A stretch of DNA of 64,000 nt from Sulfurimonas sp. (GCF_026196735.1 NZ_JAPHUF010000021.1:6744-70743), one strand, 5' to 3'; shown: positions 1 through 15,398, numbered from the stretch's first letter. Translations and numbers: made by a program. The notes: a model not told the origin generated them from the sequence alone.

Positions 1-183
1 ACTTTTTTAATAGGATTTTTATTTGTTGTAAATACAATAACTTTAGGTTACATGTATTCAACAGCTGCTAGTGAATCTGTTGTAGACAATCTGGTAGAAA
101 CAACGGATGTTGTAGCTCCATCTACTCCTGCTTCTACTCCAGAAGTACCAGCTGCTGCACCAACAACACCAGCTTCAGAATAA
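1..183 (+). CDS. secG: Preprotein translocase subunit SecG, 3' part (truncated by window edge)
   Basis: Frame 1 reads TFLIGFLFVVNTITLGYMYSTAASESVVD...PASE* (TM helix plus Pro/Ala/Thr-rich tail); secG-frr-pyrE order is typical of Campylobacterota. Confidence 0.8.
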   Translation, partial: TFLIGFLFVVNTITLGYMYSTAASESVVDNLVETTDVVAPSTPASTPEVPAAAPTTPASE

Positions 184-195
184 TCACTCAACATT

Positions 196-220
196 TATAG
201 CTACTAACCATGTAGCTATA
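196..220 (+). terminator. Hairpin after secG
   Basis: TATAGCTAC-7nt-GTAGCTATA perfect 9-bp stem 13 nt after the stop. Confidence 0.45.
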
Positions 221-294
221 TATTTACTACACTTCTTTTTTTAAACATATCTATTGTATAATCCGAATTATTTTTCATATTATAAGGGAATCCA

Positions 295-852
295 ATGCTA
301 AACGAAATATTTAATGAGTGTGAAACAAAAATGAAATCAGGCATAGAACATATGCTTAAAGACTTTAAAACACTTAGAACAGGTAAGGTTACCACAGCGG
401 TTTTAGACAATGTTAAAATCGACTATTACGGTACTCCGACTCCACTTGATCAAGTTGGTTCTGTAATAGCTCAAGATGCTACTACAATCGTTGTAAATCC
501 TTGGGAGAAAAATCTTTTAGCTGATATTGAGAGTGCTATAAGTGCTGCCAATGTCGGAGCAACTCCAAATAACGACGGTGAACAAATCAAATTATTTTTT
601 CCTGCTATGACTGTTGAGCAGAGACAAGAGTCTGCAAAAAAGATGAAGGGCATGGGAGAAAACGCAAAAGTTTCAATCAGAAACGATAGAAAAAATGCGA
701 ATGACCAAATCAAAAAACTTGAAAAAGACAAAGAAGTAACTATTGATGAGTCTAAGTCTGCTCAAGACAATATACAAAAAATAACTGATAAATTTATAGC
801 AGAAATCGATAGTATTTTAAAAACTAAAGAAGCTGAGATACTTAAAGTATAA
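295..852 (+). CDS. frr: Ribosome recycling factor
   Basis: 185 aa; [23 protein letters not shown] motifs. Confidence 0.97.
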
Positions 853-853
853 A

Positions 854-929
854 AGCATCAAGATGCGTGAGCCTTACGCTGAGAAAAACCAAGCGTTAGC
901 GTAAACAAAGGAATTACTTTCTTTGTTGT
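854..929 (+). repeat. Dispersed 76-nt structured intergenic repeat, copy 1
   Basis: Ungapped 61/76 match to 33233..33308; identical blocks AGCATCAAGATGCG and ACCAAGCGTTAGCGTA; terminal 10-bp stem with TTAC loop. Confidence 0.85.
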
Positions 930-984
930 GATTAATAAATAGGAGGGTTTCCTTCGTTTTATGTAATAAAATAAGGGTAAATTA

Positions 985-1593
985 ATGAATGTAAAACAAA
1001 TTTATATGGATGCAGATGCTCTTTTAGAAGGGCATTTTAAACTAAGCAGTGGCAATCACTCACAGTTTTATCTGCAATCTGCAAAAGTCTTAGAAGACCC
1101 AAGAACAGCTCAACTGCTCGCACGGGCTCTTGCAGACGAGATTAAAGCAAGTGGCTTGGAAATTGATACAGTTTGTGCTCCGGCCATTGGAGGACTTATT
1201 GCCGGTTTTGCTTTAGCTCAAGCTCTTGATGTTCGTTATATCTTTGCTGAAAGAGTTGATGGCGTGATGAGCATCCGTCGTGGCTTTGAAATAAGCAAAG
1301 GCGAAAAAGTTTTAATGTGTGAAGACATTATTACAACTGGCGGTTCTGCTATGGAAGCGGCGGCTGCTATTAAAGAACTTGGCGGTAAGATAGTAGGTGT
1401 AGCGGCTCTGGCAAACCGTGGTTTTTGTAAACGCCAAAACAGTGACATAACAACAAAACCAAATTGTAAACTTCCTCAAAACATCCCGTTTTTTGCACTT
1501 GAAGATTTTACATTTGAGATGTACTCTCCTGAGGAGTGCCCGCTTTGTAAAGATGGAAGCCAAGCTATAAAACCAGGTTCTAGAGGTAACTAG
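985..1593 (+). CDS. pyrE: Orotate phosphoribosyltransferase
   Basis: [11 protein letters not shown] and PRPP-binding [10 protein letters not shown] motifs. Confidence 0.96.
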
Positions 1594-1625
1594 CTGATGT
1601 TATGCATTAAAGCTGCTTCATTAAA

Positions 1626-2729
1626 ATGAAGAGATTTTTTGCACTGCTTATCGGCATTGTACTAACCCTTAGTGCAACACAACACCAAAATCTTCCTAAT
1701 GATGAAAAACTCAAAAAGATGATTGGAAGAATGCTTCTTGTCGGATTTCCAAATGAAGACATAGACAAAAACAGTGAGATAACAAGACACATAAAACAGT
1801 ATGAGCTTGGCGGTGTCATCCTTTTTGACCGTTTTTATGATGACAGAAGTAAAACAAAAAATATAAGCTCACCAAAACAACTTCAACTTTTAACTTCAAA
1901 ACTAAAATCATTCTCCAACAAAGCACTTTTAATATCCATAGACCAAGAGGGTGGAAAAGTTGCAAGACTAAAGCCCTCCTATGGTTTTGCTGAAATTCCA
2001 TCGGCAAAGCAGATTTCCACTCTACATGTAGATAAGGCAAAAGAGATATACAAGACTCAAGCGCAGATGCTTCAAAGTGCTGGAATCAACTGTGATTTTG
2101 CACCTGTAGTTGACCTGGCTGTTAACCCTGATAACAAAGTTATCTATGGGCTTGAACGCTCATATGGAAACAACTCCAAAGAAGTAGTCAAATACGCAAA
2201 AATATTTATGGACTCACTAAAAGATAAAAATATTATCAGTGTACTGAAGCACTTTCCCGGACACGGCTCATCACTTGGAGATTCTCATAAAGGTTTTGTA
2301 GATATAAGCAACACTTGGAGCGAAGCTGAACTTCAACCGTACAAAGAGCTTATAAAATCTGGCGAAGTTTCCATGATAATGACAGCACATGTCTTTAACT
2401 CAAAACTAGATAAAAAATATCCGGCAACACTCTCATACAATGTAAACACAAAGCTTTTACGAAATGAGCTAAACTACAAAGGCGTAGTTATCAGTGATGA
2501 CTTACAGATGAAAGCCATCTCGCAACACTACACATTGGAGCAGACAGTTACTCTGGCTATAAACTCAGGAGTTGACATGTTGCTTTTTGGAAATCAGCTC
2601 TCAGAGCAAAACATAGATGAACTTGTAGATGTTATTATTAAACAGGTTAAAAACGGTGCAATTTCTATGAGTAGAATCATCGAGTCAAACAAAAGATTAG
2701 AACTACTGCATAAAAAAAGACAAATATAA
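1626..2729 (+). CDS. nagZ: GH3 beta-N-acetylglucosaminidase (NagZ-like), with N-terminal signal peptide
   Basis: DQEGGKVARL, KHFPGHG..GDSH (Asp-His dyad) and SDDLQM motifs; hydrophobic N-terminus. Confidence 0.85.
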   Translation: MKRFFALLIGIVLTLSATQHQNLPNDEKLKKMIGRMLLVGFPNEDIDKNSEITRHIKQYELGGVILFDRFYDDRSKTKNISSPKQLQLLTSKLKSFSNKALLISIDQEGGKVARLKPSYGFAEIPSAKQISTLHVDKAKEIYKTQAQMLQSAGINCDFAPVVDLAVNPDNKVIYGLERSYGNNSKEVVKYAKIFMDSLKDKNIISVLKHFPGHGSSLGDSHKGFVDISNTWSEAELQPYKELIKSGEVSMIMTAHVFNSKLDKKYPATLSYNVNTKLLRNELNYKGVVISDDLQMKAISQHYTLEQTVTLAINSGVDMLLFGNQLSEQNIDELVDVIIKQVKNGAISMSRIIESNKRLELLHKKRQI

Positions 2730-2731
2730 TC

Positions 2732-4213
2732 ATGCAGAGTGCCTTTTCAAATCTTGACTGGTTAGTATTTGGCTCTTACTTTGTTATACTCGCATTCACA
2801 TCTTTTATACTAAGTCGCGTTAAAATCACAAATTCAAGAGACTATTTTCTTGGCTCAAATACTATGCCTATGTTTGCCGTTGCAATTTCAGTTCTTGCAA
2901 CAAGTCAATCTGCCGCTACATTTTTAGGCGCCCCTGAATTTTCATATGTTCATGACTTTACATTTATAGGCTTTTATTTCTCAGCTTTGCTTGCTGTAAT
3001 TTTTGTAGCCTATGTACTGATTCCGAAATTTTATGAGATGAAAGCCGTTACAGTCTATGAACTGCTAGAGGTTAGGTATGGAGAGAGTGCTAAAAAGCAG
3101 GCTGGTATCATGTTTCTTGTAGGTCGTGTTTTGGCTAGTGGAGCACGACTTTATATCGGAGCACTTGCTATAAGCATGATACTCTTTGGCAATATTATAT
3201 TTGTACATGTAGCTGTCTCGATTTTGATTTTAATGTTTGGAGCACTTGCTTATACATACTTTGGCGGTGTTCGCTCAGTAATTTTGAGTGATGTCATCCA
3301 AGCGCTTACTTACATTGGCGCAGGTGTTGCGGTTTTGGTTTTTCTTTACTACTCTTTAGAGAATATCGACATTATAAGCAAGCTCCAAGAGCATAACAAA
3401 CTAAAGTTTGTAGATACATCCATAGACGGTAAATTTAGTCTTGTAGGTCTTTTAAGCGGTTGGTTGCTTTTAAACATCGCAGCCTTTGGACTAGACCAAG
3501 ATATGACCCAAAGAGTTCTCTCATGTAAGAACAAAAATGAAGCTGCAAAGTCACTGATAATCTCTATACTTCTGACTATTCCCTTTGTTCTTCTATTTTT
3601 AGCTATCGGCGCACTTTTGTTTGTCTTTTATCTGCAAAGTGATGTGACTCAGAGTTTTGAGGGTGAAAAAATTACTATCTTTATGTACTACATCCTAAAC
3701 GAGATGCCCGAGGGCCTGCGAGGTCTAGTGACCGTTGGAGCAATTGCCGCAGCACTCTCAAGTACAAACTCAGTATTGGGCGCTATGGCATCTGTAGCAG
3801 TTGAAGATATATACAGACCATGGAGATTAAAACGCACAGATACTGATGAGATGCACTTTGTAAAAGCTTCAAGAGTTGCGGTTCTTTTATTTGCCGTTGT
3901 TTTATCTCTTATGGCGATGCTCAGTTACTTCTGGCAACGCTACAGTGACCTCTCTCTTATCAGTTTTGCTCTGGGTGTAATGGCTTTTGCATATACCGGT
4001 CTTTTAGGCGTTTACTTCTCTGCCATCTTTACATCTCGCGGAAACAAAACGACTGTTCTTTTTGCATTGATTGGCGGATTTATGACTGTTTTGGCGCTTC
4101 AGCCATACACTTTTGGTATCAGCATCGGCTTTTCATGGCAGATAGTCATTGGAACTTTTGTTTCATTTTTTATAATGCAGCTCAAAAAAACAGACACAAA
4201 AATAAGTTTATAG
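2732..4213 (+). CDS. Sodium:solute symporter (SSS family)
   Basis: 493 aa multi-TM; YFLG, SAATFLG, YTYFGGVRSVILSDVIQ, DQDMTQRVL and AAALSSTNS motifs. Confidence 0.9.
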   Translation: MQSAFSNLDWLVFGSYFVILAFTSFILSRVKITNSRDYFLGSNTMPMFAVAISVLATSQSAATFLGAPEFSYVHDFTFIGFYFSALLAVIFVAYVLIPKFYEMKAVTVYELLEVRYGESAKKQAGIMFLVGRVLASGARLYIGALAISMILFGNIIFVHVAVSILILMFGALAYTYFGGVRSVILSDVIQALTYIGAGVAVLVFLYYSLENIDIISKLQEHNKLKFVDTSIDGKFSLVGLLSGWLLLNIAAFGLDQDMTQRVLSCKNKNEAAKSLIISILLTIPFVLLFLAIGALLFVFYLQSDVTQSFEGEKITIFMYYILNEMPEGLRGLVTVGAIAAALSSTNSVLGAMASVAVEDIYRPWRLKRTDTDEMHFVKASRVAVLLFAVVLSLMAMLSYFWQRYSDLSLISFALGVMAFAYTGLLGVYFSAIFTSRGNKTTVLFALIGGFMTVLALQPYTFGISIGFSWQIVIGTFVSFFIMQLKKTDTKISL

Positions 4214-4230
4214 GCAAATAACAAAAAGAT

Positions 4231-4239
4231 TGCTATAAT
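4231..4239 (+). promoter_or_regulatory. Extended -10 promoter element for the M15 peptidase/anmK genes
   Basis: TGCTATAAT (TGnTATAAT) 33 nt upstream of ATG 4273. Confidence 0.5.
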
Positions 4240-4272
4240 CATAAGGACAAAAATAAGAAAAAAGATTCAGAT

Positions 4273-5016
4273 ATGACAAGACGAAATTTTTTATTATACT
4301 CATCTGCACTAGCGTTAACCACACTTAATGCCGAGCAATTATATAAAAGTGATGTGTTTTTATCTGCAAACGAATACACAGCCTTACTTTCGCTGGACTA
4401 TAGATTAACTCAGATAAGAAGACATGTAGGATTTGGAAATTTTAATTTGATTTCCTATGGCGACTCTTTACAAATAGCAAAAATGAACCCTAAAATAGGA
4501 GCATTCACAAATGAAGAGATATCACTTATCGATAGATTTTTTTATGATGAGCCAAGCAAATACGGTTTTTACGGCGAAAGAACATGTTACAACTTAGACA
4601 ATAAAATCTCTAAAAAAGATGTTGTTAAAATTCCTCGTACCGGACATTATATATTTAAAGGAAAGCCTACTCAGGACTATGAGAGGATTATTGGTGATAT
4701 CGGACATACTCTCTACCTAACATCAGGTGTAAGAAACACCATTAAACAGCTAAGTCTCTACTGTTCTAAACTAAGAAGAGTAAAAGGAAATATTACTCAA
4801 GCCTCAAAAGACATAGCCCCGCCGTCTCACTCTTTTCATACTATCGGCGATTTTGATGTCGGCAAGATGGGGCTTGGCAGCAGAAACTTTACACTGGATT
4901 TTGCTAAAACATCAGAGTTTGAGCAGATGACAAAACTTGAATATATTAATATCAGATACTCTCCAAACAACTTGGATGGCGTTAGATATGAACCATGGCA
5001 TGTAAAGATTATATGA
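4273..5016 (+). CDS. M15 family D-Ala-D-Ala carboxypeptidase (VanY-like), Tat-like signal
   Basis: MTRRNFL leader; SGVR, SFHTIGDFD and C-terminal EPWH zinc-peptidase motifs. Confidence 0.85.
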   Translation: MTRRNFLLYSSALALTTLNAEQLYKSDVFLSANEYTALLSLDYRLTQIRRHVGFGNFNLISYGDSLQIAKMNPKIGAFTNEEISLIDRFFYDEPSKYGFYGERTCYNLDNKISKKDVVKIPRTGHYIFKGKPTQDYERIIGDIGHTLYLTSGVRNTIKQLSLYCSKLRRVKGNITQASKDIAPPSHSFHTIGDFDVGKMGLGSRNFTLDFAKTSEFEQMTKLEYINIRYSPNNLDGVRYEPWHVKII

Positions 5017-5588
5017 TGAAAAAACTAATATATATAATAGCTATCCTTTTTATATCATCACTCGCTCAAGCAAAGGAAGGTGTTTTAGTCAAGATTTTTG
5101 ATGGAGATACCTTATATTTTAAAACAGAAAATAAAATTGACAAATGTAAAATAGCATACATTGACACTCCGGAAAACAGTTACAACGACAAACTAAAACA
5201 AGAGATTGAAATATGTAAAGATATACCTACTAAGGTTATGTTAAATGCTGGAGATAGTGCGACAAAACATGCTAATAAATTACTAAAAATTGGAAATAAC
5301 TACAGCTATAGCACCTACATTAAAAACAGTGAACAAATTTGTGAGGTTTCGCTCGGTAACGGTATTACATTTAGTGAGAAGATGCTGCTTGATGGGTATG
5401 CTGTAGTGTGGAAGGTTGACAAAAAACAAAAAGAGGAACAAAACTTCAGTAGTATTTTAACCTATGCAAAAAATAAAAATAATGGTCTTTGGGGAGACAA
5501 CTCTCAAAGAGGCGAAGTTATTAAGTGCTTGGAAAAAATAAGTTCTCAAGATAGCAAGACAGATAAATCTAGCTATGAATCAAAGTAA
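5013..5588 (+). CDS. Thermonuclease (SNase) family exported protein, possibly degenerate
   Basis: Signal peptide; DGDT and IDTPE motifs; C-terminal AKNKNNGLW; start placed at ATG 5013, overlapping the upstream stop (ATGA). Confidence 0.75.
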   Translation: MMKKLIYIIAILFISSLAQAKEGVLVKIFDGDTLYFKTENKIDKCKIAYIDTPENSYNDKLKQEIEICKDIPTKVMLNAGDSATKHANKLLKIGNNYSYSTYIKNSEQICEVSLGNGITFSEKMLLDGYAVVWKVDKKQKEEQNFSSILTYAKNKNNGLWGDNSQRGEVIKCLEKISSQDSKTDKSSYESK

Positions 5589-5593
5589 ATCAG

Positions 5594-6679
5594 ATGGATG
5601 AGCTTTACATTGGTGTGATGTCAGGCACAAGCCTTGATGGAGTTGATATAGCTCTATGCAAGATAAATTCCGGCTCTTGTGAGCTTGTGTTTTATGCGGA
5701 ATACCCTTTTGATACAAACTTGAAAAATGATATTTTAACTGCTATAAATGGACCGACTACTCTAAAAACCATAGGTGAACTTGACACTCGTTTAGGCAAA
5801 ATCTATGCCGAGTATATTACTGCTTTTATGCGCCATAACAATTTACAAAAAAAAGATATAAGTGCCATTGGACTACACGGTCAAACACTCTGGCATGAAC
5901 CAGACGGTGAGTTTCCTTTTTCAATGCAGCTTGGAAATGCCAACATTATAACAGCACAAACAGGCATTAGTGTTGTCAGTGATTTTAGACAAAAAGATAT
6001 AGCACTTGGCGGTCAAGGAGCACCTTTTGCGCCTGCCTTTCATAAGCAGATGTTCTCAAAACTAAATCGTAATATTGCAGTTGTTAATATTGGCGGCATC
6101 GCAAATCTTAGCATATTGGGAAATCAACTACTTGGCTACGATACGGGAGCTGGAAATGTTTTAATGGATTTTTGGATATCAAAGAAAAAAGGCCTCACTT
6201 ACGACAAAAATGGAGAGTGGGCAAGGTCCGGTCATGTCAGTGCAGAATTATTGGACACAATGCTCCGTGATCCATACTTCTCGAAAAAAGCTCCAAAAAG
6301 TACCGGTCGTGAATATTTCAACGAAAAATGGATAGAGAAGCAACTAGAAGAGTTTGGATATGTTATAGACAAAGATGTTCAAGCAACACTTCTGGAATTT
6401 ACCGCAGTAACTATCGCAAATGAAGTAAAAAAAAGCTCCGTTGAGCTTCTTTTAGTTTGTGGCGGTGGTGCAAAAAACGGTGCTCTTATGGAAAAGCTTC
6501 GCAGAGAGTTCAAAGATATTGAAGTATCTATCAGCGATTATTATGGTTTAAACGGCGACTTTATGGAAGCTATGGCTTTTGCATGGCTTGCGTATAAACG
6601 GATCAACAAAGAAAAAGTAGAGCTTTCATCGGTTACCGGTGCGAGAGAAAATTCTGTTTTGGGTTGTATATATGAATAA
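5594..6679 (+). CDS. anmK: Anhydro-N-acetylmuramic acid kinase
   Basis: GVMSGTSLDGVD, HGQTLWH, DFRQKDIALGGQGAP, NIGGIAN, DTGAGN and PKSTGRE motifs. Confidence 0.95.
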   Translation: MDELYIGVMSGTSLDGVDIALCKINSGSCELVFYAEYPFDTNLKNDILTAINGPTTLKTIGELDTRLGKIYAEYITAFMRHNNLQKKDISAIGLHGQTLWHEPDGEFPFSMQLGNANIITAQTGISVVSDFRQKDIALGGQGAPFAPAFHKQMFSKLNRNIAVVNIGGIANLSILGNQLLGYDTGAGNVLMDFWISKKKGLTYDKNGEWARSGHVSAELLDTMLRDPYFSKKAPKSTGREYFNEKWIEKQLEEFGYVIDKDVQATLLEFTAVTIANEVKKSSVELLLVCGGGAKNGALMEKLRREFKDIEVSISDYYGLNGDFMEAMAFAWLAYKRINKEKVELSSVTGARENSVLGCIYE

Positions 6680-7610
6680 AATAAAAGAGTGGCTACAAAC
6701 AACAAAATACAAAAATCACTCTTTAGAAATTGCTTCTGCTGATGCAAGTTTTAGAAAATACTACAGACTTACAAGTGGAGATGAAACTGTTTTACTTATG
6801 GACTCATCACTTGAAAAAGAATCTCTCACTTCATTTTTGGATGTGACTCAAAGACTTTTGGATGTACATGTCAATGCTCCTTGTATTTTAGAACAGAACC
6901 TGCAAGACGGCTTTTTGATTATCAAAGATTTTGGAAACACTCACTATCTGGATGTTTTAGACAATCAAAACTATAAGAGCCTTTATTTAAAAGCGATAAA
7001 TACCATTTTAAAGATGCAAAAAGCAGATACTTCAGGCCTTCCAATTTATGATAAAAAATTTCTACATGTAGAGATGGATTTGATGAAAGAGTGGTATTTG
7101 CAAAAGAAGCTAAACCTAACACTAGATGAGTCTCAAAAAGAGCTCATAACAAAGACTCTTGATGCTATATCAACTGTTGTGCTTGAGCAGCCCCAAGATG
7201 TTTTTGTTCACAGAGATTTTCACTCACGCAATATTATGATTGCAAACGAGCATGATATAGGTGTTATAGATTATCAAGATGCAATGAACGGAGCAATCAC
7301 TTACGACTTGGTCTCTTTATTAAAAGATTGCTATGTCGCTTATGACCGCAAAGAGATAAAAAACCTTGCCTTAGCATTTCGTGATAAAATCGATCTACAT
7401 GTAGATGATGAGACATTCTTAAAATGGTTTGATTTTATGGGTATGCAAAGACATATAAAAGTGCTTGGTATTTTTTCTCGTCTATATCTTCGTGATGGCA
7501 AAGATGGTTACTTAAAAGACATACCTCTCACTCTAAAATATGTACTTGATACTGCAAGCAGATATGATGAGACTAAAGAGTTGGCAGAGTTTTTAAAAGC
7601 GAAATGCTAG
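6672..7610 (+). CDS. amgK: Anomeric MurNAc/GlcNAc kinase (AmgK-like phosphotransferase)
   Basis: ADASFRKYYR, HRDFHSRN, DYQDA, YDLVSLLKD and QRHIKVLGIFSRL motifs; start ATG 6672; murU nearby. Confidence 0.85.
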   Translation: MNKIKEWLQTTKYKNHSLEIASADASFRKYYRLTSGDETVLLMDSSLEKESLTSFLDVTQRLLDVHVNAPCILEQNLQDGFLIIKDFGNTHYLDVLDNQNYKSLYLKAINTILKMQKADTSGLPIYDKKFLHVEMDLMKEWYLQKKLNLTLDESQKELITKTLDAISTVVLEQPQDVFVHRDFHSRNIMIANEHDIGVIDYQDAMNGAITYDLVSLLKDCYVAYDRKEIKNLALAFRDKIDLHVDDETFLKWFDFMGMQRHIKVLGIFSRLYLRDGKDGYLKDIPLTLKYVLDTASRYDETKELAEFLKAKC

Positions 7611-8482
7611 AGTATTCATACCCGTTATTTCGTCCGCCGGCAGAAGCTAACAACCTCATCCTACAAGTCACATTAGGTTGCAGCTACAACAACTGCAGCT
7701 TCTGTTCTATGTACAAAACTAAGAATTATGAGGTACGAGAGCTAGAAGATGTGTTCAAGGAGATAGATACTCTCGCGCATCATTACCCAAACGCAACTAA
7801 AATCTTTTTGGCTGACGGTGATGCTCTTTCTTTGCCTTGTGAACAGTTGTTAATATTACTAGATAAACTAAACAGCACATTTACTAAACTGCGAAGAGTA
7901 TCAACTTATGCTTCTACTCAAAATATACTTGGTAAATCAAACAAAGAGCTAGAACTTCTTTGTAAATCCAAACTAAATCTATTTTATTATGGTATCGAGA
8001 CAGGCAGTGATGTTGTGCTAAAGAAGATTACAAAGAGTGTAAATCAAGCAGAGATAATCACCTCACTGACTAAAGCGACTGACGCAGGTGTAAAGATATC
8101 TGCAACGGTCATTTTAGGCATTGGCGGAAGTAAATACTCCGACTTACATGTACAAGAGACTGCCAAAATTATCAATGCTACAAAAGTCAACTATCTCTCA
8201 ACTCTTCAACTAGGAATTGAAGAAGAAGCGAAAGAAAATTTCTACAGATACTTTGATGATTTTACAATGGCAGATGATGAGCAGATACTCTCTGAGCAAA
8301 AAAGGTTTTTAGAACTACTAGAGCCGACTAACAAAATCATTTTTCGCTCTAACCACGCTTCAAATGCTCTTCATCTAGCAGGCACTCTGCCAAAAGACAG
8401 AGACAGACTTGTTCAAGAGCTAAAAATGGCTCTAGATGTCGGAAAATCTGCTTTTGTTCCTAACTACTTTAGAGGATTTTAG
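7604..8482 (+). CDS. Radical SAM protein, function unknown
   Basis: CSYNNCSFC (CxxxCxxC); FRPPAEA and FRSNHASN segments. Confidence 0.85.
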   Translation: MLEYSYPLFRPPAEANNLILQVTLGCSYNNCSFCSMYKTKNYEVRELEDVFKEIDTLAHHYPNATKIFLADGDALSLPCEQLLILLDKLNSTFTKLRRVSTYASTQNILGKSNKELELLCKSKLNLFYYGIETGSDVVLKKITKSVNQAEIITSLTKATDAGVKISATVILGIGGSKYSDLHVQETAKIINATKVNYLSTLQLGIEEEAKENFYRYFDDFTMADDEQILSEQKRFLELLEPTNKIIFRSNHASNALHLAGTLPKDRDRLVQELKMALDVGKSAFVPNYFRGF

Positions 8483-8490
8483 GCAAATTT

Positions 8491-9150
8491 CTACTTTTTA
8501 GAATTCAGCCTTGACTGATACTCTTGTGGATGTTTACACACCGGACAGACTTTTAGCGCTTTTTTGCCATAATGGATATGACCGCAGACTTCGCATATCC
8601 AAGCCTCATTCTCATCTTCACTTACAAACTCTGCTTCTTCTTCGAGTCTATCCAAGAGCATTTTAAACATTTTTTCATGTTCGACTTCTATCTTGCCGAT
8701 TCCGGTAAATAGTTTTTCCGCTTCTTTGTGTCCCTCTTCTTTTGCAATAGCTGCAAACTCAGGATACATCTTCGTGTGTTCATAACGCTCACCGTCAATA
8801 GCTTCTTGAAGATTATATTCAGTATCTCCAAAGCTATCTTCACTCTCGTTTAGCATTCTGTTGTGAAGAGCAAGCTCCATTTTAGCATGTTGTTTTTCAT
8901 TGTCAGCAGCTCTTTGAAAGTGTTCTGCGATATCTCTAAAACCCTCTTTTTGAGCAACTTTAGCAAAGTACTCATACTTGTTTCTCGCTTGTGACTCACC
9001 GGCGAATGCTTTAAGCAGGTTTACCAGAGTCAAGTCATCAGTGACCATTTCCATATCTTGTCCACAACAAGAAAGAGTTCCGCCACCTACAGCTTGTACC
9101 TCAACAGCATTCCCACACTTTTTACATTTATATGATTCGTACTTTCTCAC
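8491..9150 (-). CDS. rrc: Desulforedoxin-rubrerythrin fusion (Rrc-type peroxide defence protein)
   Basis: N-terminal CKKCGN...SCCG, di-iron AFAGESQARNKY/NEKQH/EVEH, C-terminal CEVCG...CPVC. Confidence 0.85.
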   Translation of the reverse strand: MRKYESYKCKKCGNAVEVQAVGGGTLSCCGQDMEMVTDDLTLVNLLKAFAGESQARNKYEYFAKVAQKEGFRDIAEHFQRAADNEKQHAKMELALHNRMLNESEDSFGDTEYNLQEAIDGERYEHTKMYPEFAAIAKEEGHKEAEKLFTGIGKIEVEHEKMFKMLLDRLEEEAEFVSEDENEAWICEVCGHIHYGKKALKVCPVCKHPQEYQSRLNSKK

Positions 9151-9238
9151 AGCTTATCCTTTGATAATAAAATGGTATCTTTTAAAAAGTTTACTCTATT
9201 TAAACTTATTTTACTGTTAGACAAACTTATTTACATTT

Positions 9239-9247
9239 TGTTATAAT
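9239..9247 (+). promoter_or_regulatory. Extended -10 element upstream of murU
   Basis: TGTTATAAT 7 nt before ATG 9255, which would imply a leaderless or near-leaderless mRNA; no clear SD. Confidence 0.45.
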
Positions 9248-9254
9248 CAATCTA

Positions 9255-9914
9255 ATGAAAGCAATGATTTTAGCAGCCGGTCGGGGCGAGAGAATGCGAC
9301 CACTTACAGACCACACTCCAAAGCCATTATTAAAAGTTCACGGCAAGGCTCTTATTGTACATCACATTGAAAAACTCTCTTGTCTTGGATTTGATGAAAT
9401 AGTGATAAACATCGCGCATTTGGGCTATAAAATACCTGAGACTTTAGGTGACGGCTCAAAATGGGGAGTAAACCTAGTCTACTCTGATGAGCAAAATAGC
9501 GGAGCATTAGAGAGTGCCGGCGGAATCATAAAAGCACTTGCATTTTTTGGAAATGACACCTTTTTAGTTGTAAACGGAGATATCTTTTGCGACTATGAAT
9601 TTGATTCTAGTTTTGAGCTTGGCGATAATTTGGCTCATCTTATCTTGGTGCCAAACCCAAAGCACAATCCTGACGGCGACTTTGCTTTAAAAGATGAAAG
9701 AGTTTTAAACAATGGTGAAGAAAAATTCACCTTTTCAGGCATAGGCTATTACTCGCCTAAACTTTTTGAAGGTTTAAGAGCTGAAAAAAGTGCATTGGCT
9801 CCACTTCTTCGCTTGGCAATAGACAAAAGCAGTGTCAGCGGAAATCTACATGTAGGTATCTGGTATGACATCGGAACTCCGCAGAGGCTCGAAGCTGCGA
9901 ACAGATTAAAATAA
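9255..9914 (+). CDS. murU: N-acetylmuramate alpha-1-phosphate uridylyltransferase
   Basis: MILAAGRGERMRPLTDHTPKPLL, LESAGGI, VNGDI, FSGIG and WYDIGTPQRL motifs; 219 aa single domain. Confidence 0.85.
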   Translation: MKAMILAAGRGERMRPLTDHTPKPLLKVHGKALIVHHIEKLSCLGFDEIVINIAHLGYKIPETLGDGSKWGVNLVYSDEQNSGALESAGGIIKALAFFGNDTFLVVNGDIFCDYEFDSSFELGDNLAHLILVPNPKHNPDGDFALKDERVLNNGEEKFTFSGIGYYSPKLFEGLRAEKSALAPLLRLAIDKSSVSGNLHVGIWYDIGTPQRLEAANRLK

Positions 9915-9926
9915 AAGGATTTATAC

Positions 9927-10355
9927 ATGTCATGGCCTCCGAAAACTCCATATTTAGCAACAGACGGCATAGTTGAAATATATGATGAGTCATATAAATT
10001 TATGGGTATTGTCTTGATAGAGCGAAAAAATGAACCTCTTGGACTTGCTCTTCCCGGCGGATTTGTTGATATTGGAGAGAGTGTCGAAGATGCTGTTGTA
10101 AGGGAAATGAAAGAAGAAATATCACTTGATGTACATGTAGATGAACTGCTTGGTATCTATTCGGACCCTGCAAGAGATAGCAGGTTTCATGTTGCATCTG
10201 CTGTTTATATCTGCAAAGCTATCGGCACTCCTAAAGGAGCAGATGATGCAAAAGAGGCAAGAGTTTTTGCCTTAGATAAGCTACCTTTGGATGATTTGGT
10301 GTTTGATCACAAAAAGATACTGCTTGAGTATCTGCAATACTCTACTTCTGTATAA
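9927..10355 (+). CDS. NUDIX hydrolase (ADP-ribose/nucleotide-sugar pyrophosphatase-like)
   Basis: Nudix box GGFVDIGESVEDAVVREMKEEISL; YSDPARD. Confidence 0.9.
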   Translation: MSWPPKTPYLATDGIVEIYDESYKFMGIVLIERKNEPLGLALPGGFVDIGESVEDAVVREMKEEISLDVHVDELLGIYSDPARDSRFHVASAVYICKAIGTPKGADDAKEARVFALDKLPLDDLVFDHKKILLEYLQYSTSV

Positions 10356-10485
10356 ACTGTCCGCACCCTTTTTGCTCATTACCTTTAAAAGTCTTATAAT
10401 CCTGATTGCCATTTAACCAAGAAGCGTAACGGGCACACTCTTCACTTTTCATACATGTTTTATTGTCGCAGGCTTTATCTACCAT
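10342..10485 (-). CDS. 47-aa four-cysteine microprotein (below ORF-track cutoff)
   Basis: MVDKACDNKTCMKSEECARYASWLNGNQDYKTFKGNEQKGCGQFIQK; AGGA SD upstream and TGTTATAAT -10 at 10512..10520 on the minus strand. Confidence 0.7.
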   Translation of the reverse strand: MVDKACDNKTCMKSEECARYASWLNGNQDYKTFKGNEQKGCGQFIQK

Positions 10486-10689
10486 CTATATTCCTATCTT
10501 TTATTTATGGAATTATAACAGATATGAGTGTAATAGGCGATATTTATTATAAATTTAAAATACCAAGAGTTTATTAAAATATAAAATAATAAAAATAAAT
10601 ATTATTTTTATATTGAAACAACTATACTCTTATAAACACATAATAATAAAAATTAATATTAATTTGATATTAAGTGGTTATACTAATGC

Positions 10690-11904
10690 ATGAATACTTA
10701 TAAAAACTTTGTAAAATATTTTACTACTGGCATGATTTCAAGTGTAGCTTTTTTTAGCAATAACATGTCCTCAAACGATTATAATACACAAAAAATAAAA
10801 GAAAATGCCCTTGTACTCATCCCTATTTACCTTATACCTTTTGCGATTATCTGGGGATTGTTTTATATTTATTTAGACCACTCGGTTCCCGCAATAATTC
10901 CGTTTAGCTATTCACTAATATCTCTACTGAATCTATGGTCTTTTAAAAAGACAAAAAACATAGCTCTTTTTCAAAATATACAAACTACTCTTATACTTCT
11001 GTTTCCATTTTTTCTTATGTGGGTTCTAGGCGGTTTTGCGCTGGGAAGTTTTGTTTTTATATGGGCTTTTTTTGCACCGATTTCAGCCTTGATTTACAAT
11101 AGCAAAAACGAAGCACTCTACTGGTTTTACGCATTTATTGCTCTTATAGTTTTTTCAACTATTATAGACGAGAGTCTTTTAAGTTCTCATACAACCTTTA
11201 TGCCTCAAATAGCGGTGGAGATGTTTTTTCTTTTAAATATTACACTAGGGCTGTCAGGTATTTACTTTTTAATTCGATATTATATAAATGAAAATGAAAG
11301 AAGTACGCATGAAGCTCTTAAAAAAGAGCATATAGAGTTACAAAAACGCTCGCAAGAACTACATGAGGCAAATAAAAAACTAGAGTACCACGCCAATCAT
11401 GATTCACTTACAGCTTTACCAAACAGATATTACCTAAGAGAACATCTCGGCCACAAGTTAGCACACGCAAAAAGAAATAAATACAGCGTTGCTCTTTTAT
11501 TTATGGACTTGGACGGTTTTAAAGGGGTAAATGATAATTTAGGACATGCTACGGGAGACCAAGTACTCAAAGATGTTTCTTTTAGACTAAAATCTCTGCT
11601 TAGAGAAGAGGATGAAATCTCAAGATTAGGCGGTGATGAGTTTGCGATTGTTATAGGTGACCTTAAAGATATAAGCTATGTTGAGATGATTGCAAAGCGT
11701 ATCATAGATGAAATTAACCGTGATTACGATTACCTACCAAATAGTTCACAAATAGGTGTAAGTATCGGCATTAGTCTTTTTCCAAAAAATGCAGATGATA
11801 TTGACACTCTGATAAACAATGCGGATAAAGCTATGTACGAGGTAAAACAAGCTTCTAAAAATGCTTATTTGTTTTATAATAAAGCTATGCATAGCAGCAG
11901 TTAA
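10690..11904 (+). CDS. Membrane-bound diguanylate cyclase (GGDEF)
   Basis: About 6 TM helices, coiled coil, HDSLTALPNR, REED I-site and RLGGDEF active site. Confidence 0.9.
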   Translation: MNTYKNFVKYFTTGMISSVAFFSNNMSSNDYNTQKIKENALVLIPIYLIPFAIIWGLFYIYLDHSVPAIIPFSYSLISLLNLWSFKKTKNIALFQNIQTTLILLFPFFLMWVLGGFALGSFVFIWAFFAPISALIYNSKNEALYWFYAFIALIVFSTIIDESLLSSHTTFMPQIAVEMFFLLNITLGLSGIYFLIRYYINENERSTHEALKKEHIELQKRSQELHEANKKLEYHANHDSLTALPNRYYLREHLGHKLAHAKRNKYSVALLFMDLDGFKGVNDNLGHATGDQVLKDVSFRLKSLLREEDEISRLGGDEFAIVIGDLKDISYVEMIAKRIIDEINRDYDYLPNSSQIGVSIGISLFPKNADDIDTLINNADKAMYEVKQASKNAYLFYNKAMHSSS

Positions 11905-11954
11905 CACAAGTATAGTATACTTTAGACAAAATTATATACTATCAAGGAAATGAA

Positions 11955-12929
11955 GTGTTAAAGTCAATCTTACTAATATCTCTAAGCACTCTGCTTTTTG
12001 CAAAATACACAAACTGCGAATTTAAAAATGAAAACTATACAGAAATATGCCAAAAAGCGGTAAAAAACGGTGTCTCATATAAATATGCCAATGAATTTTT
12101 ACTCTCATATTTTAAGACGAAAAAATTTGATGAGGTAAGTTATAAATATCTTCAACCGAGATTTATCAAAGCTCATAAAAAAAATGAGAAAAAAGCCAAC
12201 AATGTACTTGTCAAATATATACCCGATATGGTAACTCATCTAAAAAAATATAAAGAGGTGTATGATTATGCGGAGAAAAAATACGGTGTAAACCGCGAGA
12301 TAATAGCTGCTATCTTAATAAAAGAGACCAGACTCGGCAAGATAAAACCTACTCATGATGCCTTTATAGTATTTAACACTTTAGTCGTACGAACCAAACC
12401 AAATTCTAGCCGTGAAAAGTGGCTGCTAAATATGGGTAAGACAAATATGACCTCTATCATCGTCCACTGTTATAAAAAGGGGGTAACTCCTGAGCAATGT
12501 AATCTGCCAAGCTCTTATGCAGGAGCTGTAGGGATACCGCAGTTTATGCCAAACAGTTTTGTTTATGCGGAGGGCTATAAAACAGAAGTGGCAGATCTAA
12601 CAAAGATGGAAGATGCCATTGTGTCAGCAAGCAAATTCTTACATAAAAAAGCAAATTTCTCAGTGTTGATTGATTGGAGTATTATGCCTGATATTCCAAG
12701 CATAGAATCTGAGTGGTATGATTATGAGTTCGAAAATGACGACGCTTCATTCGTTTATGCCCAAAGTAAAAAATCAAACAAAGTCTATGATTGTTTTACA
12801 TGTGAAAAACCGGAATTAACATACCTTAGGGAATATAGCAAAAAACTTATGCGTTATAACAACTCATCTAACTATGCTGTGGGCGTAATGCGTCTGGCAT
12901 ACGATGCACATAAAAGTCTCAATAAGTAA
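11955..12929 (+). CDS. Lytic murein transglycosylase (MltB/SLT_2-like)
   Basis: IKETRLG (catalytic Glu), SSYAGAVGIPQFMPNS and YNNSSNYA motifs; signal peptide. Confidence 0.85.
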   Translation: MLKSILLISLSTLLFAKYTNCEFKNENYTEICQKAVKNGVSYKYANEFLLSYFKTKKFDEVSYKYLQPRFIKAHKKNEKKANNVLVKYIPDMVTHLKKYKEVYDYAEKKYGVNREIIAAILIKETRLGKIKPTHDAFIVFNTLVVRTKPNSSREKWLLNMGKTNMTSIIVHCYKKGVTPEQCNLPSSYAGAVGIPQFMPNSFVYAEGYKTEVADLTKMEDAIVSASKFLHKKANFSVLIDWSIMPDIPSIESEWYDYEFENDDASFVYAQSKKSNKVYDCFTCEKPELTYLREYSKKLMRYNNSSNYAVGVMRLAYDAHKSLNK

Positions 12930-12935
12930 ATAAGT

Positions 12936-13190
12936 TTATTTTTTTGCTACATACTTATAATACAATAAACACCAGCCATTAGGATCGATAGAGCCTTCCA
13001 CTAATTTACATTCATTGGTTTCTGGGAGAAAATGTATACAATCAATGCACTTTTGCGAATCTTTTGGTGTATCTTGATAAGCTATCTTATTTTGAGCAAT
13101 TTTAGCCAGTAGTGGAGTAGTACCCCAAGTAACTAAACCGAGTAAAGCCATATATTTAAAAAACGCTCTTCTTGTAGAAATTCTCATCAC
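12936..13190 (-). CDS. High-potential iron-sulfur protein (HiPIP, small Iro-like type), Tat-exported
   Basis: STRRAFF Tat motif; YQDTP..CIDC-F..C..V.G.IDPNGWC four-Cys pattern. Confidence 0.85.
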   Translation of the reverse strand: MMRISTRRAFFKYMALLGLVTWGTTPLLAKIAQNKIAYQDTPKDSQKCIDCIHFLPETNECKLVEGSIDPNGWCLLYYKYVAKK

Positions 13191-13269
13191 AACTCCTTTT
13201 TAAAATAATTCGTATTACTATACTCTAGTGGATTTTACTTAAGCATATAATAAATTATTATAATTAGTC

Positions 13270-14133
13270 TTAGTTAATCATGGCTTTTAAAGTGTGTGAT
13301 TCATTTGGTTTAATTATTCTGGCATCATCAAAAGCATTTGCAGATTCTATGCAGACCATACCTTCATAAGAACTAGGTTTCATAGCGCTCATTCTCTTGC
13401 ATTTGTCTACCCATGGATTCCAAACAACTACAGAAGATGAACCTTCATTTTGTATCTTGATTGTTCTATTTTTGTCTATTAGCAATATTTTTCCATAGAC
13501 ATCTTGATAAACTCTATCAATCTCTCTATTAAAAATTATATCTCCGTCTTGTATTTTTTCTTTCATACTCAAAGCATCAAAATACGGCTTTTTATCAAGA
13601 CCTTTTACTCTGACATGTGAAATATGCGAAATATCAAAATAGGTGTGCAGAGCCTGCGTAATAAGAAATGCTTTATCATCAAGATTTGTAGTTTTTAACT
13701 CCACAGTAAGAGTATCTGAAACTATTACATGTAACTCCAGCTCAAATCTATGCGGCCACAGTTTTAAACTCTCAGGTGTGTGAGAAAGTGAAAAAGTAAC
13801 TTCTGTTGAGTTGGCATCTGTCTCATTGGTATTTTTTAGCTTCCACATAGCAGTTCTTGCAAAACCATGCTGAGGCAGGCTTTCATCTTTAGGCATACGC
13901 CCTGAAGGAAGTGCCCTTGGGGTACCAAACCATGGCCAACAAACCGGAATACCACCGCGAATAGACTTCATATGCTCAAAGTCGCTACTCTCGCTAAGCC
14001 ACAAAACAGGGTTGCCGTAATGTCTTTTATACTCAAAAATATGTGCGCCTTGAAGTGCTATCTTGGCTGTCGCTGAAGTGTTTTTTATTTCTATGTACTC
14101 AAAACCGTTAATGAGCTTTTTGTGCTCTATCAC
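13270..14133 (-). CDS. D-hexose-6-phosphate mutarotase (aldose 1-epimerase family)
   Basis: IRGGIPVCWPWFG, HGFAR, ALHTYF and VVWNPW motifs; start moved to GTG 14133, overlapping the upstream TGA. Confidence 0.85.
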   Translation of the reverse strand: MIEHKKLINGFEYIEIKNTSATAKIALQGAHIFEYKRHYGNPVLWLSESSDFEHMKSIRGGIPVCWPWFGTPRALPSGRMPKDESLPQHGFARTAMWKLKNTNETDANSTEVTFSLSHTPESLKLWPHRFELELHVIVSDTLTVELKTTNLDDKAFLITQALHTYFDISHISHVRVKGLDKKPYFDALSMKEKIQDGDIIFNREIDRVYQDVYGKILLIDKNRTIKIQNEGSSSVVVWNPWVDKCKRMSAMKPSSYEGMVCIESANAFDDARIIKPNESHTLKAMIN

Positions 14134-15398
14134 CACTTTTGCCAAACTGTAATTTTGTGCCATTTAAAAGCATAAAAGAGTATAAAGACATAAGAGATTA
14201 TACCTAGTAAGTATGTTGATTGCATATCGCCGCTTACAGATGAGATCTTACCAAAAATAAGAGGCATTATCGCTCCACCTGCAATACCCATAATAAGCAG
14301 AGCGCTCCCTTGTGCTGTATACTTTCCAAGACCTTCCAATGCAAGCGGCCAGATGGTAGGCCACACAAGAGCATTTGCAAAGCCTAAAAGCGCAACAAAG
14401 GTTACGGTATTTGGAAGTGTCGGTATGCCCATCCATCCCCATAATATTTCTGAGATAAAGAAGCTGTCTGCCGATGAAGATACAACACCAATCAAAAACA
14501 AAATCCCAAAAAGAGCAGAGCCTATAAGTGCTTTTTCTTGTGAAAGATACTTAGGTATAAAAGCTACACCGACCAAGTAGCCCGCAACCATAAATACCAT
14601 AGTGTAAGAGGTAAGTGCAGTGGAGTTACCCACACCAAGATACTGTCCATAAAGCCCTATGGTATCTCCGGCTATAACTTCAATACCAACATAAAAGAAA
14701 AGTGCGACAGCACCTAAAACAACGCGAGGAAACTGGAAAATACTATTTTTATCCAAAAGAACTTCTTTTTCAAATTCTAGTTCAGGGAGCGATGAAAACT
14801 TAACAAGAGCTACAAGTCCCGCTAAAACAATAGCCATAATAATATAAGGAGTTATGAGTCTAGATGAGAGAGCCTCTTTTTCAAACGCCGATAGATTTTC
14901 TAAAGAACCAATATCTGAAAGGATAAGAGCTGTAAAAAGAAGAGGCACGATTACTCCTGCACCTTTATTTATAAGTCCCATTATACTTATTCTCATGGCA
15001 GCGCTCTCTATGGGTCCTATACAAACCACATAAGGATTTGATGCGGTTTGAAGTATGGTTAGTCCTGTTCCAAGTGTAAAAAGTGCAAGTAAAAACAGCA
15101 TGAAGCTTGCGCTTATTGCAGCCGGTATAAAAAGAAGACTACCAACAACCATAACAGCCAAACCAAGAGCCATGCCATCTTTGTAGCCTGTTTTCTCCAG
15201 CACATAAGACATTGGCAGCGCCATAACGGTATATGCTATATAAAAAACGAAAGTTACAAAAAGAGCTTGAAAGTCGTTAAGATCACATATAACTTTCAAA
15301 AAAGGTATAAGTGATCCATTTAACCATGTTACAAATCCAAATATAAAGAACAAGATTCCTATAATTACCATAGGTAACATCGTTGTCTTAGTGTCCAT
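14130..15398 (-). CDS. MFS sugar transporter, FucP/GluP (glucose/galactose/GlcNAc) family
   Basis: LFFIFGFVTWLNG, LQTASNPYV, YVGIE and GIAGGA motifs; 12 TM. Confidence 0.9.
   Translation of the reverse strand: MDTKTTMLPMVIIGILFFIFGFVTWLNGSLIPFLKVICDLNDFQALFVTFVFYIAYTVMALPMSYVLEKTGYKDGMALGLAVMVVGSLLFIPAAISASFMLFLLALFTLGTGLTILQTASNPYVVCIGPIESAAMRISIMGLINKGAGVIVPLLFTALILSDIGSLENLSAFEKEALSSRLITPYIIMAIVLAGLVALVKFSSLPELEFEKEVLLDKNSIFQFPRVVLGAVALFFYVGIEVIAGDTIGLYGQYLGVGNSTALTSYTMVFMVAGYLVGVAFIPKYLSQEKALIGSALFGILFLIGVVSSSADSFFISEILWGWMGIPTLPNTVTFVALLGFANALVWPTIWPLALEGLGKYTAQGSALLIMGIAGGAIMPLIFGKISSVSGDMQSTYLLGIISYVFILFYAFKWHKITVWQKW

Follow-up and report, generated by a model that had tools for sequence, protein, structure and literature searches.

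Peptidoglycan recycling is known mainly from Gammaproteobacteria, where the entry step is import of whole anhydromuropeptides by AmpG. Here we analyse a cluster of cell-wall genes at positions 1626-10355 of a 64,000-nucleotide (nt) stretch of DNA from Sulfurimonas sp. (GCF_026196735.1, NZ_JAPHUF010000021.1:6744-70743; the whole stretch is called the window below, and positions count from its first letter). It had originally been predicted, from the sequence alone, to be a compact Pseudomonas-type recycling cluster. The closest described systems are the anabolic N-acetylmuramic acid (MurNAc) recycling route of Pseudomonas, reportedly set out by Gisin 2013; murTKQ of Tannerella forsythia, said to have been described by Ruscitto 2016; and the extracellular muropeptide rescue of Bacillus subtilis, by report the subject of Litzinger 2010. 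The Pseudomonas pathway genes are scattered, whereas those of the Sulfurimonas module are clustered.

The Pseudomonas route comprises AmpG, NagZ, AmpD, AnmK, MupP, AmgK and MurU (PMC5371407; PMC5371409). The Sulfurimonas module resembles it in its AnmK, AmgK-family kinase and MurU end, which would yield UDP-MurNAc without MurA and MurB, and in the absence of MurQ. It differs in having no AmpG, no MupP ortholog, no LdcA and a single MurC/Mpl-family ligase. NagZ and AmpD are cytoplasmic in Pseudomonas, whereas NagZ and the AmpD-family amidase are predicted to be exported here, and the linked importer is a sodium:solute symporter (SSS). The label Pseudomonas-type therefore holds for the AnmK/AmgK/MurU end and fails for the front half, where NagZ, the amidase and the lytic transglycosylase MltB carry signal peptides and the SSS symporter stands in AmpG's place.

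In T. forsythia, murTKQ encodes the transporter MurT, the 6-kinase MurK and the etherase MurQ (PMC5790795). As in murTKQ and in a Vibrio cluster (locus L133), the gene for the first cytoplasmic kinase neighbours one for a protein of the sodium-symporter type, which here would import a free monosaccharide of the MurNAc type; the Vibrio transporter and the window protein are members of one SSS subfamily. Unlike those two systems, which have a 6-kinase and end in catabolic MurQ, the Sulfurimonas module ends in AmgK and MurU and is anabolic only. B. subtilis uses NamZ, together with secreted NagZ and AmiE, followed by MurP and MurQ (PMC8054146). The likeness to B. subtilis lies in the cutting of muropeptides to the monosaccharide outside the cytoplasm, before import, by exported NagZ and a MurNAc-L-Ala amidase (with NamZ in two loci). 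In contrast to B. subtilis, the amidase, often part of one polypeptide with NagZ, belongs to the Amidase_2 (AmpD/AmiD) family, the proposed importer is an SSS protein and not a phosphotransferase system, the substrate is probably an anhydro sugar, and the end of the route is anabolic.

All parts of the module come from known families, and what is new is their combination and the missing MupP: by analogy with these systems, Bacillus-like extracytoplasmic processing and MurT-like import would supply an anabolic AnmK/AmgK/MurU end like that of Pseudomonas. The literature searched gives no substantive link of AmgK/MurU or peptidoglycan recycling with the phylum, Campylobacterota, in keeping with the original view that the pathway is uncharacterised in this lineage; two distribution figures (PMC5371409 Fig. 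8; PMC8054146 Fig. 6) may include these genera, which the accompanying text does not discuss.

A conserved module in Sulfurimonas and Sulfurovum

The window corresponds to contig C10 of a genome of 2.19 Mb that is 100% complete; among the matches listed, the nearest named ones to its genes come from Sulfurimonas. Open reading frames (ORFs) and profile searches agree with the original placement of nagZ, an SSS transporter, an M15 carboxypeptidase, anmK, amgK and murU, with a lytic transglycosylase beyond them. We compared this locus, by tblastn and ORF mapping, with 97 relatives' loci, namely 20 kb around murU in 17 other genomes and 80 named loci found via the transporter (only Sulfurimonas and Sulfurovum among the matches listed), some contigs being in both sets. 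The same order recurs in Sulfurimonas, Sulfurovum and their kin: an exported hydrolase (NagZ, NagZ-Amidase_2, Amidase_2 or NamZ), then SSS, AnmK, AmgK and MurU, and often MltB.

The gene directly upstream of the symporter encodes an exported cell-wall hydrolase in all 85 loci with enough upstream DNA: NagZ fused to Amidase_2 (37 loci), NagZ alone (30), a stand-alone Amidase_2 (16) or the exo-muramidase NamZ (2). Downstream of the symporter, AnmK is found in 78 of the 81 loci with enough sequence and the full AnmK, AmgK and MurU set in 63 of 67, with the AmgK-like gene adjoining murU in most of the loci. MltB follows MurU within 1 kb in 42 of 66 loci and lies farther off in 7 more.

The module genes also occur together across the phylum. 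In a sample of 301 genomes of the phylum, MurU exceeds its cut-off in 18, made up of 10 of the 14 genomes of the window's genus, 3 in two sister genera and 5 in a second family (Sulfurovum and kin), so the cluster is not ubiquitous. The SSS ortholog (called by profile A1 at E < 1e-60) and AnmK are each found in every one of these 18 MurU genomes and nowhere else in the sample (Fisher p = 3e-29, uncorrected for phylogeny). Amidase_2 is present in 18/18 module genomes and in 17/283 of the others (p = 1e-19), and within Sulfurimonas the module is all-or-none (10/14 sampled genomes).

The anabolic core: AnmK, an AmgK-like kinase and MurU

AnmK (5594-6679, + strand) matches PF03702 with E = 1e-139 (466 bits) and scores 474 bits against NF007139 (cut-off 367). 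The next gene encodes a kinase of the APH fold (6672-7610, + strand, in an ORF open from 6639; PF01636). Its likely start is the ATG at 6672, because relatives align from ORF residue 12; this ATG overlaps the anmK stop by 8 nt, the overlap reading ATGAATAA. The top family of the kinase is the AmgK family NF045759, at 251.8 bits over profile positions 5-319 of 324, a score more than 10-fold above that of any non-AmgK family, and its HRDFHSRN catalytic loop and DYQD motif are intact.

MurU (9255-9914, + strand) lies over the NF045761 equivalog cut-off (294.8 bits against 250, profile positions 1-225 of 226). Its best matches in the PDB are Pseudomonas putida MurU (4Y7T, E = 2.8e-58, full length) and Pseudomonas aeruginosa MurU (8HHD, E = 2.7e-52), the next match being at 1e-18. 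At 219 amino acids (aa), and with its nucleotide loop intact, the protein fits a minimal single-domain nucleotidyltransferase of about 220 aa. These family assignments support AnmK, the AmgK-like kinase and MurU as a genuine core for anabolic MurNAc salvage.

Elsewhere in the phylum, open frames of about 835-875 aa with an N-terminal sugar-1-phosphate nucleotidyltransferase domain are widespread (for example G169:C1:454317-455000 and G187:C20:276404-277087); they score about 110-123 bits against the MurU model, below the cut-off, and none is present in the window's genome at E <= 1e-30.

Missing branches and the MurNAc-6-phosphate step

The original prediction had noted that murQ, ampG and mupP are missing from the cluster, and for each of them this extends further. 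AmpG (TIGR00901) has no match in the complete genome and exceeds its cut-off in 0/301 genomes of the phylum; MurQ is absent from the genome and from all 301. Searches with Escherichia coli reference proteins (phmmer) likewise did not find LdcA, NagA, NagB, NagK or MpaA in the genome. The same searches recovered MurA, a weak MurB-like match and one MurC/Mpl-family ligase. Lacking LdcA and having a single such ligase, the cell is unlikely to re-ligate the tripeptide. Judging from these matches, de novo UDP-MurNAc synthesis is probably intact; since the catabolic branches are missing as well, the cluster can only be anabolic.

Without MurQ, the product of AnmK, MurNAc-6-phosphate (MurNAc-6P), needs dephosphorylation or isomerisation. 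No ortholog of the Pseudomonas phosphatase MupP was found in the genome, where the best match to NF009696 reaches 88 bits, short of the cut-off of 359, and comes from generic Gph-like HAD proteins. A PF13419 search of the genome returned seven HAD genes, of which the three that are Gph-like score at most 88 bits with the MupP model. As dedicated MupP equivalents we rejected the C7 Gph-like HAD, which is in all 33 genomes tested, module-plus and module-minus; the C4 HAD, present in 30 of the 33, again in both groups alike; and the NagD-like C20 HAD, whose distribution follows family taxonomy. The 18 module-plus and 283 module-minus genomes make a clean set for finding the MurNAc-6P phosphatase.

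At G000:C7:123873-126022 a Gph-like HAD gene, which is in all 33 genomes tested and hence not specific to the module, overlaps at its neighbour's 3′ end with a gene encoding a product with an N-terminus that looks, by eye only, like the signal peptide of a family-5 (peptide-type) ABC substrate-binding protein.

A sodium symporter as the candidate sugar importer

The SSS protein (2732-4213, + strand; PF00474) has as its closest solved structure the sialic-acid symporter SiaT (5NV9, E = 5e-38). Sialic acid and MurNAc are both N-acetylated sugar acids. We aligned the two proteins and mapped the window protein onto the published sites of SiaT, the Na+ symporter for sialic acid of Proteus mirabilis (PMC5931594). 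The TM1 carboxylate contacts Ser60 and Thr63 of SiaT are Ser60 and Thr63 here, both invariant. The Na2 site is kept (Ser342/Ser343 in SiaT, Ser343/Ser344 here, with Ala56 conserved too), as is the Na3 aspartate (Asp182 in SiaT, Asp187 here). In contrast to SiaT, the position of the glycerol-tail binder Gln82 is occupied by Tyr82 and that of the TM3 salt-bridge residue Arg135 by Ala135, with Arg132 and Arg139 of the same helix invariant, also across the wider subfamily. The gene context differs from that of SiaT as well, being one of cell-wall recycling and not of sialic acid.

An exhaustive search extends the subfamily at 50-36% identity to named members in Vibrio, Photobacterium, Alteromonas, Rheinheimera, Microbulbifer and Planctomycetota, which databases label only as 'sodium:solute symporter'. 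Vibrio pomeroyi (L133) has the order NagZ, MurR-like regulator, SSS, BadF-type kinase, AnmK, MurQ, and in another lineage the SSS homolog is divergent from AnmK-MurQ; one homolog from Planctomycetota has no cell-wall genes nearby. The Vibrio context and that of the other lineage tie the subfamily to MurNAc or 1,6-anhydro-MurNAc (anhMurNAc), as far as gene neighbourhood predicts substrate. MurT of T. forsythia, which imports exogenous MurNAc, has been placed in the sodium symporter superfamily (PMC5790795). By this analogy an SSS-type MurNAc importer probably has precedent, in the examples found only with the catabolic MurQ route. A dedicated anhMurNAc importer has not been assigned in the literature searched. 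From the conserved sites and the gene contexts, it is most likely the SSS symporter, and not AmpG, that imports the free sugar, as anhMurNAc or MurNAc.

Hydrolases with export signals

The NagZ-type GH3 protein (1626-2729, + strand; PF00933, E = 9e-67) is exported and single-domain. The NagZ signature KH[FI]PG[HL]Gx4D[ST]H is matched by KHFPGHGSSLGDSH at residue 208, in the GH3 N-terminal domain. The protein scores 189 bits against NF003740, slightly below the cut-off of 207, and no other gene of the genome matched E. coli NagZ (phmmer). Its N-terminus is hydrophobic (MKRFFALLIGIVLTLSA), and all 11 NagZ orthologs inspected have signal-peptide-like N-termini. Such N-termini, called by eye and hydropathy, are present on NagZ, the NagZ-amidase fusions, the stand-alone amidases, NamZ and MltB, and not on AnmK, AmgK or MurU, and the relatives show the same division. 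In all NagZ, amidase and NamZ versions a hydrophobic N-terminal extension precedes the conserved start of the catalytic domain, and some stand-alone amidases have lipoprotein-like N-termini.

No ampD lies in the cluster, as the original prediction stated, and this holds for the locus only: the genome encodes an AmpD-family amidase elsewhere, and it is exported. This gene, the genome's only Amidase_2 (AmpD/AmiD family), lies at G000:C7:341236-341898 and encodes 220 aa with a signal peptide. It is followed by a gene for a DUF819 membrane protein and then one for a YcjG-like enolase-superfamily epimerase (homologous to L-Ala-D/L-Glu-epimerase and scoring 99 bits against E. coli YcjG), the three spanning G000:C7:341236-344053. 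The adjacency of amidase and DUF819 recurs in all four sister genomes, and the DUF819 protein could be an importer for the freed stem peptide or dipeptide.

A separate exported amidase gene was found in all five genomes whose NagZ has no fused amidase. In the fusions, GH3 NagZ and an AmpD/AmiD-type domain form one exported protein of 550-575 aa (L034:7848-9530 and 36 other loci); we know of no characterised example of this architecture. A further Amidase_2 domain lies at G219:C4:133379-133810, within a 598-aa frame whose size fits a NagZ-amidase fusion, in a Sulfurimonas genome that has no SSS, AnmK or MurU; it may be what is left of the module, or it may serve a purpose of its own.

The lytic transglycosylase is an MltB-like SLT_2 protein with a signal peptide (11955-12929, + strand; PF13406, E = 8e-32). 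It is the likely source of the 1,6-anhydro-MurNAc ends.

Proposed route and alternatives

We consider it probable that the module serves a periplasm-first recycling of peptidoglycan sugar, from anhMurNAc to UDP-MurNAc; the order of the periplasmic steps, and the enzyme activities and localisations given here, are predictions from sequence. Lytic transglycosylases, including the linked MltB-like enzyme, would free GlcNAc-1,6-anhydro-MurNAc-peptides in the periplasm (GlcNAc, N-acetylglucosamine). The exported AmpD/AmiD-family amidase, fused to NagZ in many relatives and encoded by a separate gene in the window's genome, would strip the stem peptide, and exported NagZ would take off GlcNAc. Free anhMurNAc, plus MurNAc where NamZ or other muramidases act, would then enter through the Na+-coupled SSS symporter. 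We place the import at the level of the monosaccharide because the genome's sole NagZ and sole Amidase_2 are both exported, while AnmK depends on a cytoplasmic supply of the anhydro sugar. There AnmK would convert anhMurNAc to MurNAc-6P, some phosphatase would release MurNAc, the AmgK-like kinase would form MurNAc-alpha-1-phosphate, and MurU would make UDP-MurNAc, which rejoins wall synthesis downstream of MurA and MurB.

Several points weigh against this proposal. The step from MurNAc-6P to MurNAc is its weak point: the module has no phosphatase gene linked to it, and the occurrence of the three HAD candidates does not follow that of the module. The AmgK-like kinase, named amgK in the original prediction, has AmgK as its best family yet lies far below the NF045759 equivalog cut-off (252 against 550); the MurU assignment stood, being over its cut-off and nearest in structure to the Pseudomonas enzymes. 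The residue that forms the substrate salt bridge in SiaT, Arg135, is alanine in the SSS protein, so that an argument for carboxylate binding would then rest on the neighbouring arginines. The likeness to T. forsythia MurT (Tanf_08375) is indirect, resting on a murTKQ-like context and not on direct sequence homology, and MurT itself is called a sodium symporter in one place and a protein of the major facilitator superfamily elsewhere in the same paper (PMC5790795). The co-occurrence covers five genera in two families, and its Fisher p values overstate independence. Finally, amgK and murU are split in the window by an opposite-strand gene, which makes their coordinated expression there uncertain.

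A different source for the sugar can be envisaged: as in T. forsythia, the module would chiefly take up MurNAc or anhMurNAc that neighbouring bacteria release, and recycling of the cell's own wall would not be its main task. The occurrence of the SSS subfamily in MurNAc-utilisation clusters elsewhere, the uptake of exogenous MurNAc by MurT (PMC5790795) and the presence in two loci of NamZ, an exo-muramidase giving free MurNAc, speak for it. MurA and the weak MurB-like gene make auxotrophy improbable, however, the conserved cluster holds no gene for outer-membrane uptake, and the tight linkage of AnmK with a lytic transglycosylase suggests that the anhydro turnover products are the cell's own. 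Nor is there MurQ, NagA or NagB to burn the sugar; the original prediction raised the scavenging of cell-wall sugars from neighbours, and such sugar is unlikely to serve as a source of carbon with these enzymes and NagK absent. We regard scavenging as the chief function as unlikely, noting that the two sources are not mutually exclusive.

AmgK of P. putida also accepts GlcNAc. The low score of the kinase against the AmgK equivalog model, and the acceptance of GlcNAc by AmgK-family kinases, would suit a pair that activates another sugar, such as GlcNAc or N-acetylgalactosamine for surface glycans, with no MurNAc pathway at all. This is very unlikely given a MurU that passes its equivalog cut-off and has two characterised Pseudomonas MurU enzymes as its nearest structures, and given perfect co-occurrence with AnmK, whose sole known product is MurNAc-6P, in genomes with no MurQ to use it up. 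The least probable alternative, that the SSS protein is an AmpG analogue importing the disaccharide or whole anhydromuropeptides, with NagZ and the amidase acting after import, would supply the replacement that the absence of AmpG calls for and gains from signal peptides called only by eye and hydropathy, but it sits poorly with hydrophobic extensions kept in every NagZ, amidase and NamZ version, with the lipoprotein-like amidases and with matching solved SSS transporters that all carry small solutes.

Periplasm-first recycling suggests another solution in free-living chemolithoautotrophs, one of periplasmic dismantling followed by import of the sugar alone through a sodium symporter. More tentatively, Sulfurimonas, Sulfurovum and kin might possess a self-contained recycling that dispenses with AmpG, cytoplasmic NagZ/AmpD and MupP, uses a periplasmic NagZ-amidase, often one fusion protein, to strip muropeptides, has in the SSS protein the first dedicated anhMurNAc importer, and employs a MurNAc-6P phosphatase not orthologous to MupP or a 6P-to-1P mutase bypassing free MurNAc. 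The candidate anhMurNAc transporter and the natural NagZ-amidase fusion enzyme are leads in their own right, and the all-or-none pattern in Sulfurimonas offers a good system in which to ask what recycling is worth to an autotroph.

Descent of the module

Trees of SSS and of AnmK were rooted with sequences from Vibrio and from L134. All Campylobacterota copies fall in one clade (SSS support 99/98), within which Sulfurimonas, the main Sulfurovum genus and genus g6 each form a monophyletic group. A recent transfer between Sulfurimonas and Sulfurovum is unsupported, each genus being monophyletic within the single Campylobacterota clade. The GC content of the cluster (0.37) is near that of the genome (0.34). 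The data fit a single early origin followed by vertical inheritance inside each genus and by losses, the module being missing in 4 of 14 sampled Sulfurimonas genomes.

Insertions and layout in the window

The original prediction called the cluster a compact module, which does not hold for the window: its copy is the least compact form of the module, interrupted at three junctions by M15 and SNase-like genes, by radical-SAM and rubrerythrin genes, and by NUDIX and GGDEF genes, with all core ORFs intact. The genes originally named are all present among the twelve ORFs between 1626 and 12929; the SNase-like, radical-SAM, rubrerythrin and NUDIX genes, which lie inside the cluster's original coordinates, had gone unmentioned. 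The VanY/M15-type peptidase (4273-5016, + strand; PF02557, E = 2e-9) has a twin-arginine motif (MTRRNFLL) at its N-terminus and weakly matches 4MPH, a D-Ala-D-Ala carboxypeptidase family protein. It had been counted as part of the module, and we rejected it as a core member, finding it in 3 of the 97 relatives' loci. The SNase-like nuclease (5016-5588, + strand, in an ORF open from 4995; PF00565, E = 4e-7) is exported, with the signal peptide MKKLIYIIAILFISSLAQA, and is present in 1/97 loci. The radical-SAM gene (7604-8482, + strand; PF04055, E = 1e-16) is likewise in 1/97, and the rubrerythrin gene, whose product has an N-terminal desulfoferrodoxin-type domain (8491-9150, - strand; PF02915, PF06397, PF21349), in 3/97. 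The NUDIX hydrolase (9927-10355, + strand; PF00293, E = 7e-19) adjoins murU and was considered as a pathway member; it was rejected, having no tblastn match in any of the 97 loci. The M15, SNase, radical-SAM, rubrerythrin and NUDIX genes are insertions that the window shares with, at most, a small number of close relatives. A gene for a GGDEF protein (10690-11904, + strand; PF00990) lies between NUDIX and MltB.

The upstream neighbours of the cluster are frr and pyrE. NagZ and SSS are separated by 2 nt, the M15 and SNase genes overlap, SNase and AnmK lie 5 nt apart, and the radical-SAM gene overlaps the amgK stop by 7 nt. From amgK to murU the distance is 1.6 kb, with the opposite-strand gene in between. 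Promoter and terminator scans gave overall no more than the shuffled expectation, and an Rfam search of window positions 1-14500 gave no match. The top sigma-70-like match of the region (9218-9247; TAGACA, an 18-nt spacer, TG, TATAAT) lies in the gap between murU and the divergent rubrerythrin gene and ends 8 nt short of the ATG of murU. Since the insertion, murU may have had its own predicted promoter, with a leader that is very short or absent.

The radical-SAM and rubrerythrin insertion (7604-9150) is also present in locus L051. Beyond MltB, positions 13270-14163 on the - strand encode a 297-aa member of the aldose-1-epimerase family, similar in size to YeaD. Many Sulfurimonas loci keep this gene as a convergent neighbour of MltB/MurU; the protein may act as a mutarotase for the anomer-specific kinase, or the position of its gene may be mere synteny.

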